From positions 1 through 24,872 of the forward strand of contig JAUYIV010000204.1 of the NCBI GenBank assembly GCA_030688105.1: a DNA stretch of 24,872 nucleotides. The letters are read 5' to 3'. The notes below the pieces were generated by a model. That model saw only the letters and a list, made by a program, of their open reading frames with translations, was not told the DNA's origin and did no database searches. Both the position numbers and the translations under genes were made by a program. This document shows positions 17,199-24,872 of this stretch, piece by piece; positions within the stretch are counted from its first letter, which is position 1; every line of letters starts with the position of its first letter. Source of the stretch: Actinomycetota bacterium. Its GTDB lineage: Bacteria; Actinomycetota; Acidimicrobiia; Spongiisociales; UBA11373.

Positions 17199-18383
17199 TC
17201 ACGCGCTCGCCGAGACTCCCAACGCTTCACGCAGGGCGTCGACCTTGTTGGTTCGCTCCCAGCTGAAGGCGCCGGGCGGGTCGTCCGGCGTGCGGCCGAA
17301 GTGCCCGTGGAACGAAGTCGGTCGGTATATGGGGCGGCGCAGGTCGAGGGCGGCGATGATCCCGTTGGGGGTGAGCGGGAACACCTCGATTACCGCCCGC
17401 TCGATCGCCTCTTCGTCGAAGTCGGTGGTGCCCCGGCAGTCGACGGTCACCGCGGTGGGCCGGGCGATCCCGATGGCGTAGCCGAGCCGGATCTCGCATT
17501 CGCGGGCCAGCCCTGCCGAGACGATGTTCTTGGCGATGTGCCTCGCCATGTAGGAGGCCGAGCGGTCGACCTTGGAGGGGTCCTTGCCGCTGAAGGCGCC
17601 GCCGCCATGGCGGGCCCATCCACCGTAGGTGTCGACAATGATCTTGCGGCCGGTGAGCCCGGTGTCGCCGGCAGGTCCCCCCTTCTCGAAGCGCCCGGTC
17701 GGGTTGACGTGGAGCTGGATGCCTTCCGTCCACCACTCGCCGAGTGCAGGGCGCAGGATCTCGCGGGTGACCGCGGCCTCCAGTTCGGCTCCGCCGTCGT
17801 TCCACTCGGGACCATGCTGGGTGGACAGGACCACCGAGTCGATGCGCTTTGGCACGCCCCGCTCGTACACGACGGAGACCTGGCTCTTGGCGTCGGGTCG
17901 CAGGTACGGGACCGTCCCGGAGTTCCTCGCCTCGGCTTGGCGGGCGATTATCTGGTTGGCCAGCGTGATGGGCAGGGGCATGAGCTCGGGGGTCTCGGCG
18001 ATGGCGTATCCGAACATCAGCCCCTGGTCGCCGGCGCCCATCTCCTCGTCCCGGTCGACGCCACGGGCGATGTCAGAAGACTGCGCGTGGATGGCCACGT
18101 GGACCTTGGCGGTGTCGGCGTCGAACCCGACGGCTTCGTCGTCGTAGCCGATGAAGCGCATCGTGTCGCGCAGGATCTGCTCGTAGTCGACGTCGACCTG
18201 GGCGGTGATCTCCCCGGCGATGACCGCGAGACCGGCGGTGAGGAGGACCTCGCAGGCAACCCGCGCCTCGGGATCCTGGGTCAGGACCGCATCGAGGATC
18301 GCGTCGGAGACCTGATCGGCTGCTTTGTCGGGATGCCCCATGGACACCGACTCGCTGGTGAACAGATGGCGGCGCGGCTGCAC
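17199..18383 (-). CDS. metK: S-adenosylmethionine synthetase (394 aa)
   Basis: [65 protein letters not shown]; GAGGAG RBS before GTG 18383. Confidence 0.98.
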
Positions 18384-18419
18384 CTTTGCTCCTCGGGTCG
18401 GGAGTCGAACTAACGCCGC

Positions 18420-18425
18420 AGGGTA
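18420..18425 (-). promoter_or_regulatory. Possible -10 box TACCCT for metK
   Basis: TANNNT hexamer about 36 nt upstream of the start; no convincing -35 box. Confidence 0.3.
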
Positions 18426-18507
18426 GTGCGGGTGATGGCCGGGCGACCAGGCCCGGGCGCATCCAATCCCGCTCCTGGGCGGTCTGCCTCTGCCGAGGGG
18501 CGCGGTC

Positions 18508-18522
18508 CCGGATAGCATCCGG
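18508..18522 (+). promoter_or_regulatory. Possible -10 TAGCAT embedded in the inverted repeat CCGGAT-agc-ATCCGG
   Basis: Divergent metK/epimerase region; a short palindrome like this can arise by chance at high GC. Confidence 0.3.
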
Positions 18523-18545
18523 TCACCCGATACCGAGGAGTTGGA

Positions 18546-19565
18546 GTGGTGGAGAGTTCGGTCGCAGGTTCCCGCGTGCTGGTGACGGGGGCGGGTCTCG
18601 TGGGGAGGCGGCTCGTCGAGAGGCTGATCGCAGAGAACGCCAAGGAGATTCGGTTGATCGACGTGTCGGCGGCGCGCCTCGCTGAAGCGCCACCGGAGGT
18701 CGAGACGATCGATGGGAACATCAACGACCCGGACCAGGTCATCCCGGCGATGGACGGTGTGGACTTCGTGTTCCACACCGCCGCGGTCCTCGAGGGCAAC
18801 GACGTCGGTGCGTATCACCGTGTCAACCACCGCGGATCGGAGGTGATGGCCACCGCCGCCGCCGCGGCGGAGGTTCACCGTTTCGTTCACCTGTCCTCGG
18901 TCGCCCTCTACGGCTTTGCCGACGGTGACGCCATCGAAGATGGGGAGCCCACTCCCACGGCGCAGGCGTACTCGATGTCGAAGGCGGCGGGGGAGGCGGC
19001 GGTCCTCGAGATCGGCCGGATGACCGGACTGCCCGTGGTCGCCATTCGTCCGGCCGCGATCTTCGGCCCCGGCTCGCGTTTCTTTACCGGGACGTTCATG
19101 AAGCGGGCGTCGAAGCGCCCGATCAGGATGGTCGGCAACGGCAACGGAAGCCAGCCTGTCGTCTTCATCGACGATGTAGTCGATCTCATGCTCACCGTGG
19201 CGACCCATCCGTTGGCCGTCGGCGAGGTGTTCAACTGCTCGATCGATCCTCCGCCCAGCCAGAAGGAGTACGTCCAGGCCTACGGGAAGCTGATCGGGAA
19301 CCAGTCTTACGTCGGGATCCCCACCTGGCTGGTGGCGGGAGCGGGATCTGTGATCGTGCCGTTCTCGAAGCGGGGAACCTACGCCCGCCAGCTGCCGAGG
19401 AACGTCAGGCACATCGACAAGTGGGTGCGCTATCCGATGGACAAGGCGGCGCGGGTCCTCGATTGGCGTCCCCAGTTCGACGTCGAGTCCGGTGTCCGGG
19501 CATCGGTGCCGTGGCTCGTCGGGCAGGGCCTGCTCGATCCGGCGGAGATCGCCGGGCTGCGCTAG
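18546..19565 (+). CDS. NAD-dependent epimerase/dehydratase family protein (extended SDR, 339 aa)
   Basis: [10 protein letters not shown] Rossmann motif, [16 protein letters not shown], catalytic [14 protein letters not shown]; GAGGAG RBS. Confidence 0.92.
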
Positions 19566-19590: not shown

Positions 19591-20163
19591 TCACCAACCC
19601 CCGCGGTGGTCTCGCCCGGGGCGGCGCCCTCGGTCGAGCGACCCCGATCTGCGGTCCGGTGCGGGGTGGCCGATGGTGACGAGCCCGAGGACCTCGACGT
19701 CCTTCGGGATGCCGAGCAGAGCCCCGACCGCGTCCATCCCGCGTGCCCCGTGGACCCCGGCGCCGAGGCCCTCGTCGACCGCGGCGAGAAGGATCGCCAT
19801 GAGGGCCGCTCCCCCGTCTACCCACCACCAGGGGACGCCCTCGAGGGCGGCCGGGTCCTTGTCGGGCTCGGAGTAGCGCTTCCGATAGACCCCCGGCTCT
19901 ACGCACAGGACGATGTGGGCCCCGGCCGAGGAGAGCCATCGGTCGAATCCCGAGGCCACGTAGTCGTCCTCGCCGCACAGCAGGGCGATCTGCCCGATGC
20001 GCTCGGGATCGTCGACAACGACCGCCGAGATCCCCTGAGACCATCCTGCCGACGGGCCACGGAACCCGGCATCCACGATGCGATCGAGGGCTCCGGCGGG
20101 CAGGGGCTCCCCCGTGTAGTTGCGTACCATGCGCCTCCGGCGCAGGGCGTCCCGCAGCTCCAT
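19591..20163 (-). CDS. Nitroreductase family (FMN) protein (190 aa)
   Basis: [44 protein letters not shown]...LVTIGHP; TGATG overlap with the pntB stop. Confidence 0.92.
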
Positions 20164-21533
20164 CAGACCGTCTCGAGCGCCACGGTCAGGTCGGCCAGCG
20201 CCTTCTTGGCGTCGGCAAAGAGCATCAGCGTGCCCTCGTCGTAGAACAGCGGGTTGTCGATGCCGGCGAAACCCGGCGACATGCTCCGTTTTACCACCAC
20301 GACGGTCCGGGCCCTGTCGACCTCGATGATGGGCATCCCGTAGATCGGGCTTTCGGCGTCATCACGGGCGGAGGGATTCACCACGTCGTTGGCCCCCAGC
20401 ACGAGCACGACGTCGGTGCGGGAGAGCACCGAGTTGGTGTCATCGAGGTCGAGGAGCCGGTCATAGGGGATCTCGGCCTCGGCGAGGAGGACGTTCATGT
20501 GGCCCGGCATCCGCCCGGCCACGGGGTGGATGCCGTAGACCACCTCGACGCCGCGGCGCTCGAGCTCGTCTGCCACCTCGCGGAGCTGGTGCTGGGCCTG
20601 GGCCACGGCCAGCCCGTATCCGGGGACGATCACGACCCGGTTGGCGTAGGAGAGGGCGACGGCGAGATCTCCGGGGGTCGTCGTGCGGACGTCACCTCCG
20701 GCGGAGGCCGCCGGAGCGGCGCCCTCGCCGGTGCCGAATGCGCCGAAGAGGACGTTGGCCAGCGAACGGTTCATTGCCTCGGTCATCAACTTCGTCAGGA
20801 TCAGCCCCGAGGCCCCAACGAGGGCGCCTCCGATGATGAGTGCCGAGTTCTCGATCACGAACCCGGTGGCGGCCGCGGCGAGGCCGGACAGCGAGTTGAG
20901 CAGGGCGATGACGACCGGCATGTCGGCGCCGCCGATCGGGATCACGAGCAGCACCCCGAGGACGAGCGAGATCACTCCCATGCCCCAGAACGCCAGAGGG
21001 TCCTGGCTGGTCTGGCTCCACACCCCCGCCGTCAGCAGGCCGACGAGGAGCGCGGCGTTCAACGTCTTTTGACCTGGATAGGTGATCGGCGATCCGCTGA
21101 GCAGGCCCTGGAGCTTGGCGTACGCCACCAGGCTGCCGGTGAAGGTGATCCCGCCGATGCCGACGGAGAGGAGGATCGTCAGCATCTCCACGGTCTCGAT
21201 CTCTCCGGTCACGGTGACGTAGACCGCTCCGGCGACGAGGGCCGAGGCCAGGCCGCCGAAGCCGTTGAAAGCGGCCACGAGCTGGGGCATCGCGGTCATC
21301 TGGACCCGCAGCGCCAGGACTGCCCCGACGACTGCACCGACCGCGGCTCCGGCTCCGAGCACGACCCACGAGACCTCGCTGTCGACCAGCGTGACGACGA
21401 CGGCCAGCAGCATGCCGACGGCAGCCACCGCATTGCCCGACCGGGCGGTGCGCGGTGACCCGAGGCGCCTGAGCCCGATGATGAAGGCGACCGCGGCGAG
21501 CAGGTAGAGGAGCGCCTGAACCTCGGGGCTCAC
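20163..21533 (-). CDS. pntB: NAD(P) transhydrogenase beta subunit (456 aa)
   Basis: MTAMPQLVAAFNGFGG, IGGADMPVVIALLNS, GIHPVAGRMPGHMNVLLAEA, GANDVVNP, KRSMSPGFAGIDNPLF. Confidence 0.98.
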   Translation of the reverse strand: MSPEVQALLYLLAAVAFIIGLRRLGSPRTARSGNAVAAVGMLLAVVVTLVDSEVSWVVLGAGAAVGAVVGAVLALRVQMTAMPQLVAAFNGFGGLASALVAGAVYVTVTGEIETVEMLTILLSVGIGGITFTGSLVAYAKLQGLLSGSPITYPGQKTLNAALLVGLLTAGVWSQTSQDPLAFWGMGVISLVLGVLLVIPIGGADMPVVIALLNSLSGLAAAATGFVIENSALIIGGALVGASGLILTKLMTEAMNRSLANVLFGAFGTGEGAAPAASAGGDVRTTTPGDLAVALSYANRVVIVPGYGLAVAQAQHQLREVADELERRGVEVVYGIHPVAGRMPGHMNVLLAEAEIPYDRLLDLDDTNSVLSRTDVVLVLGANDVVNPSARDDAESPIYGMPIIEVDRARTVVVVKRSMSPGFAGIDNPLFYDEGTLMLFADAKKALADLTVALETV

Positions 21534-21829
21534 TCGCGGCCCTCCCGCCTGGGTCGGCGGAACATACCGAGCATCCGGTCCGTCACCAGGAACCCACCGA
21601 CCACGTTGATGGTCGCCGACCCCACCGCCAGGAAGGCCAAAGACGCCGCCAGCAGGTCGTTCTCGATCCCGGTGGCGATGATCGCTCCCACGATCGTGAT
21701 GCCGGAGATCGCATTGGAACCCGACATCAACGGCGTGTGCAGCGTCGGAGGCACCTTGGTGATGAGCTCGAAGCCGATGAAGGACGCCAGCACGAAGACG
21801 ACGACCCCGACCACCACCGGGTCGAGCAT
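21530..21829 (-). CDS. pntA: NAD(P) transhydrogenase alpha subunit part 2, membrane part (99 aa)
   Basis: KVPPTLHTPLMSGSNAISG, NVVGGFLVTDRMLGMF; ATG 21829 in a TGATG overlap. Confidence 0.96.
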   Translation of the reverse strand: MLDPVVVGVVVFVLASFIGFELITKVPPTLHTPLMSGSNAISGITIVGAIIATGIENDLLAASLAFLAVGSATINVVGGFLVTDRMLGMFRRPRREGRE

Positions 21830-22944
21830 CAGATTCCCCCCTCGACGGCGTCGCGGACCCGCTGGTTGACGATCTCGCCTCCGCGGGTCACGCACGCCGA
21901 TGCGATCTCGTCTTCGGGGTCGATCCGCAGCTCGCCGTCCTCGATCAGGTGATCGAGCAGAGAGATGATGTTTCGGCTGTACATCTCGGAGGCATCGCCC
22001 GCCCCGCGGGAGGCGAGGTCGAGCGGCCCGTGGATGGTCACCGCACCGTGGATGACGATCTCGCCGGGCCGGGTGAGCTCGCAGTTGCCTCCGGTGGATG
22101 CCGCCGCATCGACGACGACCGCCCCGGGCCGCATCGACTCGACCATCTCCTTGGTGACCAGCACCGGGGCGCGCCGCCCGGGAACCTGCGCCGTGGTGAT
22201 CACGACGTCGCTCTCGGCGACGGCGGCGGCGAGCGCCTCCTGCTGGGCCTGACGAGTCGCCGGATCGACCTCGCCGGCGTACCCATCGGCCTCCTCGGCG
22301 TCGAGGGTGACCGGACCGCCCACGAACTTGACGCCGAGGCTCTCGATCTGCTCGCGGGCGGCCGGCCGGATGTCGTACCCGGACACCACCCCCCCGAGGC
22401 GCTTGGCGGTGGCGATCGCCTGGAGCCCGGCCACCCCCGCGCCGAGCACGAGCACCCTGGAGGGGCGGATCGTGCCGGCGGCAGTCATCATCATGGGGAA
22501 GAGACGGGGGAGGGCGGACGCCGCCACGAGCACTGCCTCATATCCGGCGACGGTCGCCTGGCTGGAGAGGGCGTCCATGCTCTGGGCGAGAGTGGTCCGG
22601 GGGATGAGCTCCATCGCAATCGCGGTGATACCGGCGCCGGCGATGCGACGGATCTCCTCGGGGTCGCCGAGTGGGTCGAGAAACGCCACGACTGCGGCGG
22701 CGGGCCCGATCTCGTGGGCCGTGAGGGGGCCGACCCCGAGCACCAGATCGGCCCGGGGCGGGTCGCCGCCGAGCACCTCGGCCCCGGCGGCGGCATAGGC
22801 GCCGTCGAGGAATCCCGCCTCGACGCCCGCTCCAGGATCGAGAACCACCCGGTGGCCCCGCTCGACCAGACTCGAGACTCCTCGGGGGGTCAGGGCGACG
22901 CGGCGCTCACCAGGGCGTGGTTCGCTGAGGACGCGTATCAGCAT
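21829..22944 (-). CDS. pntA: NAD(P) transhydrogenase alpha subunit part 1, domain I (371 aa)
   Basis: GERRVALTP, AQSMDALSSQA, MMMTAAGT, GAGVAGLQAIATAKRLG, ITTAQVPG, GGNCELT. Confidence 0.97.
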   Translation of the reverse strand: MLIRVLSEPRPGERRVALTPRGVSSLVERGHRVVLDPGAGVEAGFLDGAYAAAGAEVLGGDPPRADLVLGVGPLTAHEIGPAAAVVAFLDPLGDPEEIRRIAGAGITAIAMELIPRTTLAQSMDALSSQATVAGYEAVLVAASALPRLFPMMMTAAGTIRPSRVLVLGAGVAGLQAIATAKRLGGVVSGYDIRPAAREQIESLGVKFVGGPVTLDAEEADGYAGEVDPATRQAQQEALAAAVAESDVVITTAQVPGRRAPVLVTKEMVESMRPGAVVVDAAASTGGNCELTRPGEIVIHGAVTIHGPLDLASRGAGDASEMYSRNIISLLDHLIEDGELRIDPEDEIASACVTRGGEIVNQRVRDAVEGGI

Positions 22945-23008: not shown

Positions 23009-23428
23009 TCAGGCTCGCGCCGCCTCGGTCGCCGCCCACTCAGACCAACGCGTCACGCGGATCTCGATGATGGGCCCCTCGATGGGGTGCTCCCGGTAGC
23101 CGGGGTAGCGGCGCGCCAGAAGCGCGGCGGCGTCGCGGTGGCCGGGCCCATCAGGCTGGATGATCGAGGCATGCCCGTCGGCACGGACCCACCACAGCCG
23201 ATCCCACTGCTCCTCATAATGGTCCACCAGCACCGACACCCGCGGTTCGGCGGCGACGTTGTCGAGGCGCTTCAGGCGGATGGTGCGCTTGGGCTTGTGG
23301 TCGATCGCCGTCACGATCCGGTCCCCATCGATTGCGAAGGTGATCGCCACGACGTGGGGCGCACCGTCGCCGCCAACGGTGGCGAGGCGGGCGACCCGGG
23401 CCCCGGCAAAGCGCTCGGCGGGGGTCAT
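23009..23428 (-). CDS. PPOX-class putative F420-dependent oxidoreductase (Rv0121-like, 139 aa)
   Basis: VARLATV..DGAPHVV, IDHKPKR..RLKRLDNV..EPRVSVLVDHY..WDRLWWVRADG; ATG 23428 overlaps the zwf stop (ATGA). Confidence 0.88.
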   Translation of the reverse strand: MTPAERFAGARVARLATVGGDGAPHVVAITFAIDGDRIVTAIDHKPKRTIRLKRLDNVAAEPRVSVLVDHYEEQWDRLWWVRADGHASIIQPDGPGHRDAAALLARRYPGYREHPIEGPIIEIRVTRWSEWAATEAARA

Positions 23429-24864
23429 CCGCCGGTCGCCCAGCGGTCGGTGAGCGGGTCGAGCAGGGCGCGCGCCCCGTCCGGTCCCCACGAGCCCGCG
23501 GGATAGGGATGAAGCGGGAGGTCCTGGTGGAGGAGGGGGGTGTAGAGCCGCCACGCCTCCTCGACCTCGTCCGATCGCACGAACAGCGTGGGATCGCCCT
23601 CGATGACGTCGGCCAGCAGGGTCTCGTATGCATCGGGTATGTCACCGAAAGCCTCGGAATACGAGAAGTGGAGCGGGATGCGCCGGAGTTGGAACTGGTC
23701 GGCGGGCTCCTTCACCTCGATCACCAGTGAGAAGCCCTCCTCGGGCTGCAGCGTCAGATACAGGACGTTGCCCGTCGACATGCAGTCGTCGGGCCGGCCG
23801 TGGAAGAGACAGACCGGCGGGCCCCGGAAGGTGACCGCAACCTGGGTCTGACGGCGCGCCAGCGCCTTTCCGGTCCGCAGGTAGAACGGCACGCCCTGCC
23901 AGCGCCAGTTGTCGATGGAGAGACGGAGGGCGGCGTAGGTGGGGGTGCCGCTGGCGGGATCGACGCCGGGGGAGGCGCGGTACGGGGCGATGGGCTCGCC
24001 TTCTATCGAGCCACCCTGGTATTGGCCGATCACCACAGCCGAGGGATCGACCGAGTGGATCGAGCGAAGCACTTTCACCTTCTCGTCGCGGACGTCGCCG
24101 GCGGTGAAGGCCGTCGGGGCCTCCATCGCGGTCAGGGTGAGGATCTGGCTGAGGTGGCTCTGGACCATGTCGCGCAGGACGCCGGCCTCGTCGTAGTAAC
24201 GGCCCCGGGTGCCGACTCCGAGTGACTCGGCGACGGTTATCTCGACCCGCTCGACGCGGTCCCGGTTCCACGACGCCTCGAAGATGGGATTGCCGAAACG
24301 GAACACCAGGAGGTTCTGGACGCTGGCCTTTCCGAGGTAGTGGTCGATGCGATAGACGGCGGCCTCGCCGAAGTGGGCATGTACCAATCGATTGAGTTGC
24401 CGAGCGCTGGCGAGGTCGTGGCCGAAGGGCTTCTCGACCACGAGACGGGTCCACCCCGGGCCGTCGGCGAGGCCGGCGGCGCCGAGTCTCTCGATCGCGT
24501 CGGGCACCACCTCCGGAGGGATGGCGAGGTAGACCACCCGGTTGCCGGGGAGCCGCAGCTCTGCTTCGAGGTCGACGATGCGCTTGGCGAGGCCCTCGTA
24601 GCCGCGGTCGCGCCCGACCGGTTCGTAGAACACATGGCGACCGGTCCACTCGACGGCGGGTGCCCGCCCGACGCCGGAGGCGGTGAGCGCCTCTACGGCG
24701 CGATCGCGGAAGCCCTCGTCGCCCAGGACGGACGTCGCCGCGCCCAGCACGATGGAAGCTCCGGGGTCGTGGTGCATCAGGTCGTAGAGCGCGGGAAGCA
24801 ATTTTCGAGAAGTGAGGTCGCCGGTTGCGCCGATGACGACGAACAGGTGGCGTTCCATGGTCAT
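23425..24864 (-). CDS. zwf: Glucose-6-phosphate 1-dehydrogenase (479 aa)
   Basis: GATGDL..RKLLPALY, VVEKPFG, YRIDHYLGK, RDMVQSHL, RWQGVPFYLRTGK, AYETLL, FVRSDEVEEAW; start ATG 24864 or 24858. Confidence 0.97.
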   Translation of the reverse strand: MTMERHLFVVIGATGDLTSRKLLPALYDLMHHDPGASIVLGAATSVLGDEGFRDRAVEALTASGVGRAPAVEWTGRHVFYEPVGRDRGYEGLAKRIVDLEAELRLPGNRVVYLAIPPEVVPDAIERLGAAGLADGPGWTRLVVEKPFGHDLASARQLNRLVHAHFGEAAVYRIDHYLGKASVQNLLVFRFGNPIFEASWNRDRVERVEITVAESLGVGTRGRYYDEAGVLRDMVQSHLSQILTLTAMEAPTAFTAGDVRDEKVKVLRSIHSVDPSAVVIGQYQGGSIEGEPIAPYRASPGVDPASGTPTYAALRLSIDNWRWQGVPFYLRTGKALARRQTQVAVTFRGPPVCLFHGRPDDCMSTGNVLYLTLQPEEGFSLVIEVKEPADQFQLRRIPLHFSYSEAFGDIPDAYETLLADVIEGDPTLFVRSDEVEEAWRLYTPLLHQDLPLHPYPAGSWGPDGARALLDPLTDRWATGG

Positions 24865-24872
24865 CGGGTGGG

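Follow-up and report, generated by a model that had tools for sequence, protein, structure and literature searches.

We describe a glucose-6-phosphate dehydrogenase (G6PDH, Zwf) from a member of the Acidimicrobiia in which threonine replaces the arginine that adjoins the 2′-phosphate of NADP+, and whose gene lies in a predicted operon with the order gnd-zwf-(PPOX)-pntAA-pntAB-pntB-nitroreductase. The best-supported reading, to which we give a probability of about 0.6, is that this enzyme has relaxed or NAD-leaning specificity, being dual or NAD-preferring, and that its NADH may be converted to NADPH by the transhydrogenase PntAB. Retained NADP preference is the main rival. The window, by which we mean the whole stretch of DNA analysed (24,872 nt), is an entire contig of a 2.19-Mb MAG with 421 contigs and 88% completeness. 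Arg-less G6PDHs and the rule for reading them are already known; what is new is an operon of gnd, zwf, pntAB and a nitroreductase gene, conserved in the family, whose Arg-less Zwf is the only one in an organism that has PFK and in which no Entner-Doudoroff aldolase was detected. Neither natural zwf-pntAB operons nor kinetics of an actinobacterial Arg-less Zwf were found in the searchable literature.

The zwf gene occupies positions 23425-24864 on the minus strand. The translation of this open reading frame begins MTMERHLFVVIGATGDLTSRKLLPALYDLMHHDPGASIVLGAATSVLGDEGFR, and the N-terminal start of the 479-aa protein is MTMERHLFVVIGATGDLTSRK...ASIVLGAATSVLGDEGFR. An HMM search matched it to TIGR00871 at 512.4 bits (cut-off 400.6), with PF00479 and PF02781 matched end to end. 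Using phmmer, it was aligned with the solved cyanobacterial structure 9EMM (E = 8e-125), with M. avium 4LGV (E = 1e-80) and with the L. mesenteroides G6PDH (E = 4e-73). All the motifs of the G6PDH family (GxxGDL, EKPxG, RIDHYLGK and Q-x-H) were present, the dinucleotide fingerprint as G12ATGDL and the catalytic motifs as EKPFG (144-148), RIDHYLGK (172-179) and Q-S-H237, and the catalytic motifs were invariant among 121 aligned relatives. This agrees with an earlier note on this DNA, according to which the catalytic Asp and His are kept and QSHL stands in place of QNHL; the Ser is clade-typical (Ser in 85 sequences, Asn in 36). The window zwf is thus predicted to encode a G6PDH with its catalytic apparatus intact, belonging to a Zwf subfamily specific to the Acidimicrobiia. 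At residue 180 (24325-24327, minus strand) the near-universal Glu of HYLGKE is replaced by Ala (GKAS). Glu occupied this position in 109 of the 121 sequences, and apart from the window Zwf, Ala180 occurred in just four sequences, two of which are its nearest database relatives.

The codon of Thr44 is ACG (24733-24735, minus strand). The phmmer alignments with solved G6PDHs were free of gaps from G41 through the β2-α2 loop, with ‘ivlgaatsvlgdegfr’ of the query lying on ‘fivgyarsrltvadir’ of the human enzyme and on ‘tvvgfarrdwshdhfr’ of the cyanobacterial 9EMM. By coordinate offsets T44 corresponds to human residue 72 and L. mesenteroides residue 46, so that it stands in the column of the 2′-phosphate Arg (human R72, L. 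mesenteroides R46, E. coli R50). Arg72/Arg46 adjoins the 2′-phosphate (PMC11448927). The earlier note had claimed that Thr44 replaces the family Arg and had called for an alignment to secure the register; the ungapped alignments with the human, cyanobacterial and L. mesenteroides enzymes bear out both the register and the replacement. The +1 position is S45 and therefore not basic. Thr14, in GATGDL (24823-24825, minus strand), falls in the column of E. coli Lys18, the second NADP determinant (PMC4807051), although T or S is common in this column even among NADP-type enzymes and the K18 charge is not universal (PMC4807051). The window Zwf has neither of the charges that mark the NADP+-type class, Thr44 standing for the β2-α2 Arg and Thr14 for the second charge at β1-α1, and with a non-Arg residue in the E. 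coli R50 column it follows the sequence rule for Arg-less ‘NAD+-type’ enzymes. Two residues past Thr44, Val46 (GTC, 24727-24729, minus strand) was found in no other copy. An acidic residue, Asp or Glu, stood in column 46 in 89 of 120 relatives, among them the proteins with 99% and 94% identity, and GAC is one base from GTC. Val46 must be a strain-level variant or else an error of the consensus.

In E. coli, the wild-type enzyme prefers NADP 386-fold; either replacement alone, R50A or K18A, brings this down to 35-50-fold, and with both together discrimination is lost (PMC4807051). The most NAD-specific natural G6PDHs are without this Arg, and Volke et al. (2021) classed Arg-less Zwf as NAD-type across bacteria (PMC8546961). 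Since the charges of both the Arg and the K18 column are lost, the published mutagenesis and the Arg rule predict a dual or NAD-preferring Zwf. Fuentealba et al. regarded the loop motifs as important but not sufficient predictors (PMC4807051). The NAD-type class is rare in single-zwf species and makes up ~2% in EMP organisms, with Actinobacteria as an outlier (PMC8546961).

Non-Arg residues at column 44 were widespread among relatives. Within the 120 closest database proteins (55-99% identity, labelled mostly Acidimicrobiia or Actinomycetota) the residue was other than Arg in 114, including T in 96, S in 10 and G in 4, and Arg in 6. The family sample comprised 41 genomes from 14 genera, and the Zwf subfamily was present in 31 of these genomes. 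Every family sequence covering the column had T, S or G, and the family Zwf formed a fully supported clade in the maximum-likelihood tree. Sister groups within the same order contained a mixture of T/S/M-type and R-type members, one sister family (f4) being wholly Arg with the motifs GVAR/GVGR, and the outgroup Zwf from other Acidimicrobiia were all Arg. The Arg/non-Arg state changed about seven times on the tree of 162 sequences. Non-Arg residues were also seen, by eye only, in many diverse Zwf representatives, and Arg-less G6PDHs are not rare in general. Because the non-Arg state is fixed in the 31 family genomes and found in 114 of the 120 homologs, with invariant motifs, we conclude that the change is selected and not a product of decay. 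The earlier note had proposed looking for a second, Arg-type zwf, and none was found in the MAG (88% complete, 421 contigs). In most family genomes the sole zwf belongs to the Arg-less subfamily, and a few have a second copy at ~42% identity.

At the edge of the window, the last codons of gnd (P-T-R-stop, 24861-24872, minus strand) precede zwf, and the gnd stop (TGA, 24863-24861) overlaps the zwf start (ATG, 24864-24862). The remainder of gnd was found on contig C257, which continues the window and carries an M1 peptidase gene and the complete gnd. The overlap between C257 (locus L112, 2399-2443) and the window (24828-24872) is ~45 nt long and has one mismatch, at zwf codon 11, which is ATC (Ile) in the window and CTC (Leu) in C257; a 99%-identical database protein has Leu. 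The contig break falls at a strain polymorphism, 30 nt into zwf. On the other side, the zwf TGA stop overlaps the ATG (as ATGA) of a gene for a PPOX-class (TIGR03668, Rv0121-like) flavin/deazaflavin oxidoreductase of 139 aa (23009-23428, minus strand), recognised by PF01243 and by TIGR03668 (173.6 bits, cut-off 119). The earlier note had placed the transhydrogenase 480 nt downstream. The pntAA start is indeed 480 nt past the zwf stop, but the interval is not a spacer, as it holds the PPOX-like gene. Also missing from that note were gnd, upstream across the contig break, and the nitroreductase gene coupled to pntB. The PPOX-like gene may provide a link to F420, TIGR03668 being nominally F420-dependent, although in the 88%-complete genome CofE was not found, nor any FGD that passed the cut-off.

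The transhydrogenase is encoded by three genes on the minus strand. These are pntAA for the soluble, NAD(H)-binding part of the alpha subunit (21829-22944, 371 aa, PF05222 and PF01262), pntAB for its 4-TM part (21530-21829, ~99 aa, PF12769 at 118.5 bits) and pntB for the beta subunit (20163-21533, 456 aa, PF02233 at 597 bits). The N and C domains of AlaDh_PNT, the 4-TM segment and the PNTB subunit that characterise PntAB are therefore encoded together. Among relatives, the tblastn matches to pntAB were 82-101 aa long. The pntAB ATG at 21829 shares one base with the pntAA stop, and the GTG start of pntB overlaps the pntAB stop. The last gene of the operon encodes a nitroreductase-family flavoprotein of 190 aa (19591-20163, minus strand, PF00881 at 64.6 bits), and the A of its ATG is also the final base of the pntB stop codon. 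Its similarity to the models for BluB, NfsA and the FbiB C-terminus was weak, with scores far short of each cut-off. The operon is translationally coupled: stop and start codons overlap at gnd/zwf, zwf/PPOX, pntAA/pntAB, pntAB/pntB and pntB/nitroreductase, and no terminator-like site was found within the operon on the coding strand. The NADP motif N-R-T/S was present in Gnd of the operon in 14 out of 14 loci (N-R-T in the window genome). In 6PGDH this motif binds the 2′-phosphate. Since Gnd keeps it in the same operon, the loss of Arg is specific to Zwf.

The earlier note had placed zwf upstream of pntAB, and this neighbourhood is a family trait. Coordinates and tblastn together showed zwf followed directly by pntAA in at least 25 of the 31 family genomes, representing at least 11 genera. 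Fourteen family loci were fetched with long flanks for a count of gene order; gnd was upstream of zwf in 13 of them, and in 11 the nitroreductase gene came directly after the pnt genes and shared their strand. Zwf identity was only 59-77% across the genera that retained the operon order. A PPOX gene directly after zwf was found only in the genus of the window, and in one further genome (G154) a more distant PPOX homologue lies within an enlarged zwf-pntAA gap. In one genus (L157 on G176:C2 and L158 on G174:C25), gnd-zwf-pntAA-nitroreductase was kept and pntB was on another contig. In these two loci the genes of the membrane subunits, pntAB-pntB, have moved out and that of the soluble dI subunit has stayed. 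Three genomes of another genus in the family have lost the zwf-pntAA link.

Outside the family the arrangement was not recovered. In Thr/Ser-type relatives from sister families of the same order, pntB was separated from zwf by 80-100 kb or stood on a different contig. Flanks of up to 10 kb were read around zwf at 79 loci from other phyla, about 10 of them Arg-less, and contained no pntA or pntB. In other actinobacterial families, 60 pntAB loci were examined, and at none of them did zwf, the nitroreductase gene or the PPOX gene lie within 7 kb. The suggestion in the earlier note that Thr-type zwf might co-occur with adjacent pntAB consequently does not hold as a general link, and a general association of Arg-less Zwf with adjacent pntAB was rejected on the same two counts. 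The zwf-pntAB linkage had a single origin, in the ancestor of this family. As this is one evolutionary event, no statistics are possible on it. One unpublished genome (G266) entered only a tally of pntB, and no claim made here depends on it.

The MAG contains one zwf, a pgl and PFK. KDPG aldolase was not found in the MAG (88% complete) nor in four of five relatives, and was detected in one of the six genomes examined. The Entner-Doudoroff or extra-isozyme context that is usual for NAD+-type Zwf was thus not seen, with a single zwf and PFK, and an Entner-Doudoroff route was rejected as the rationale for an NAD-type Zwf. The gene opcA (PF10128) was not found in the 88%-complete MAG and is absent from the operon, which does not point to an OpcA-assisted Zwf. 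In a different family of streamlined Acidimicrobiia (f11, 35 genomes of ~1 Mb), pntB was detected in 33 of the 35 genomes and zwf in none; this family keeps the transhydrogenase without the entry enzyme of the oxidative pentose-phosphate route. Elsewhere in the window, the open reading frame at 17199-19412 (minus strand) has 737 aa, and its S-adenosylmethionine synthetase domains begin only at residue 349. A convergent gene for an NAD-dependent epimerase (18546-19565, plus strand) overlaps its 5′ part. Probably the true start is far downstream, or another gene occupies the 5′ part.

Zwf could still prefer NADP+, with the 2′-phosphate held by other residues such as Arg85/Arg87, and the operon would then group the NADPH generators Gnd, Zwf and PntAB with NAD(P)H-using flavoenzymes. 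We consider this unlikely, though it is the strongest of the alternatives. In the phmmer alignment the β3-α3 loop, V-G84-R85-D-R87-G, lies on human Q-Y112-D-D, so that R85 (24610-24612, minus strand) adjoins the column of Tyr112, which in the human enzyme touches the catalytic NADP+ (PMC12429737). Arg85 is a candidate compensating residue that could, from the neighbouring β3 loop, make up for the loss at column 44. The claim of the earlier note on the Arg is to this extent qualified: the register and the loss stand, with nothing basic at +1, and R85/R87 in the β3 loop may compensate, being residues of the sort that the note itself had listed as able to refute it. Column 85 was R or K in 77 of 149 Arg-less relatives and in 0 of 12 Arg-type relatives, column 45 was basic in 48 of the 149, and ~75% of Arg-less relatives had a basic residue at one or the other. 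In raw counts a basic +1 and a basic 85 tended to be mutually exclusive. However, both columns change readily (16 times for 45 and 19 times for 85 on the tree), and the anticorrelation vanished in 13 phylogenetically independent contrasts, for which reason a compensatory switch between them was rejected. Moreover, 35-39 of the 149 Arg-less relatives had a basic residue at neither column. The same applied to 6 of 27 family Zwf, 5 of which verifiably keep pntAA beside zwf. As the columns are labile and uncoupled, compensation is possible for the window protein but is not a family rule. According to Fuentealba et al., NADP specificity evolved by different means in different G6PDH lineages (PMC4807051), and an operon that includes gnd with its NADP motif fits an all-NADPH supply module equally well. 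Against this, no NADP-specific natural Arg-less G6PDH is among the characterised enzymes (PMC8546961).

It is improbable that the neighbourhood is simply inherited synteny, with the cofactor choice of Zwf and PntAB functionally uncoupled. Such a reading would suit the single origin of the linkage, the Thr/Ser-type Zwf of sister families that operates without adjacent pntAB, and the lability at the margins of the family, where adjacency was lost in three genomes of one genus and pntAB-pntB moved away in another. It accords poorly with the stop/start overlaps throughout the operon and with the retention of gene order over so many genera at such divergent Zwf identities, and zwf, pntAA and the nitroreductase gene remained together even where pntAB-pntB moved. 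Thr44 can hardly be an assembly or sequencing artefact, or the sign of a decaying gene. The MAG is fragmented, the contig ends at the strain polymorphism within zwf and Val46 is exclusive to the window copy, but the same Thr was present in 96 of the 120 closest homologs from independent assemblies, T, S or G occurred in all family genomes covering the column, and the zwf frame is open with invariant catalytic motifs.

The closest known counterparts of a relaxed or NAD-leaning Zwf are the Arg-less NAD+-preferring or dual isozymes of Komagataeibacter hansenii, Pseudomonas fluorescens (E), Burkholderia cepacia and P. putida (ZwfB), which share the family, the fold and the replaced β2-α2 Arg and are read by the same rule (PMC8546961, PMC4807051). 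Those isozymes are usually one of several in Entner-Doudoroff users, whereas the window Zwf is the only one in its MAG, alongside PFK and with KDPG aldolase not found, and unlike theirs its gene is in an operon with pntAB. ZwfB of P. putida has His68 in the Arg column, where the window Zwf has Thr. The dual-specific G6PDH of L. mesenteroides (1DPG, 1H9A) has T14 at β1-α1, as does the window Zwf. Wild-type Leuconostoc keeps Arg46, the removal of which selectively harms NADP+ use (Levy et al. 1996, as cited in PMC8546961), and the window Zwf is a natural counterpart of the Arg46 mutant. The Zwf1-type enzyme of M. avium (4LGV), also actinobacterial, has Ser at the same column (GVAS-DD) in a gap-free alignment with the query; this indicates that Arg-less forms are common in the phylum. 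Its subfamily is not that of the window Zwf (E = 1e-80, where the cyanobacterial match reached 8e-125), and mycobacterial Zwf1-type genes were not beside pntAB among the actinobacterial loci sampled. Transhydrogenases with a split alpha subunit (PntAA/PntAB/PntB) are found in Rhodospirillum rubrum and mycobacteria. The window shares the three genes with the expected domains, but its pnt genes differ in forming an operon with gnd, zwf and a nitroreductase gene, zwf being absent within 7 kb at the 60 other actinobacterial pntAB loci.

We suggest the following working for a dual or NAD-preferring Zwf. The window Zwf has lost both positive charges that would hold the 2′-phosphate, since T44 has taken the place of Arg in the β2-α2 loop and T14 stands at the E. 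coli K18 site, and for this enzyme NAD+ would most likely be a substrate on a par with NADP+ or a better one. Oxidation of glucose 6-phosphate (G6P) would then yield NADH, and that of 6-phosphogluconate NADPH. Hydride would pass from NADH to NADP+ as needed through the proton-driven transhydrogenase, itself encoded on that one transcript, and flux through the oxidative pentose-phosphate route could be freed from NADPH demand and from product inhibition by NADPH. What was observed is the replacement of the Arg, conserved in the family, in a single-copy zwf within an operon that is likewise conserved; the cofactor preference, the direction of coupling and its purpose are what we infer here.

The split of bacterial sugar oxidation between NADH and NADPH is under active study, both in work on metabolism and in metabolic engineering. 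In engineering work cited in PMC8546961, E. coli Zwf has been swapped for NADH-producing versions and transhydrogenases have been overexpressed for redox rebalancing. If our reading of the window Zwf holds, the same redox design would have evolved naturally and been fixed in a single operon. Within that operon Gnd, with its NADP motif, serves as an internal control, and the natural Thr/Ser/Gly and Arg variants of one subfamily offer a usable set for testing the role of the β2-α2 Arg in cofactor choice. More tentatively, and with some doubt, the whole Acidimicrobiia family may have rewired the first step of its sole oxidative pentose-phosphate route to NAD+, in an ‘NADH-to-NADPH relay’ operon with an NADP-type Gnd, the transhydrogenase and a nitroreductase. 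Such a relay would be an exception to the published rule that a single-copy Zwf in EMP organisms is NADP-type, and in these bacteria the NADPH yield from G6P would be set by the proton-motive force and not by enzyme specificity.
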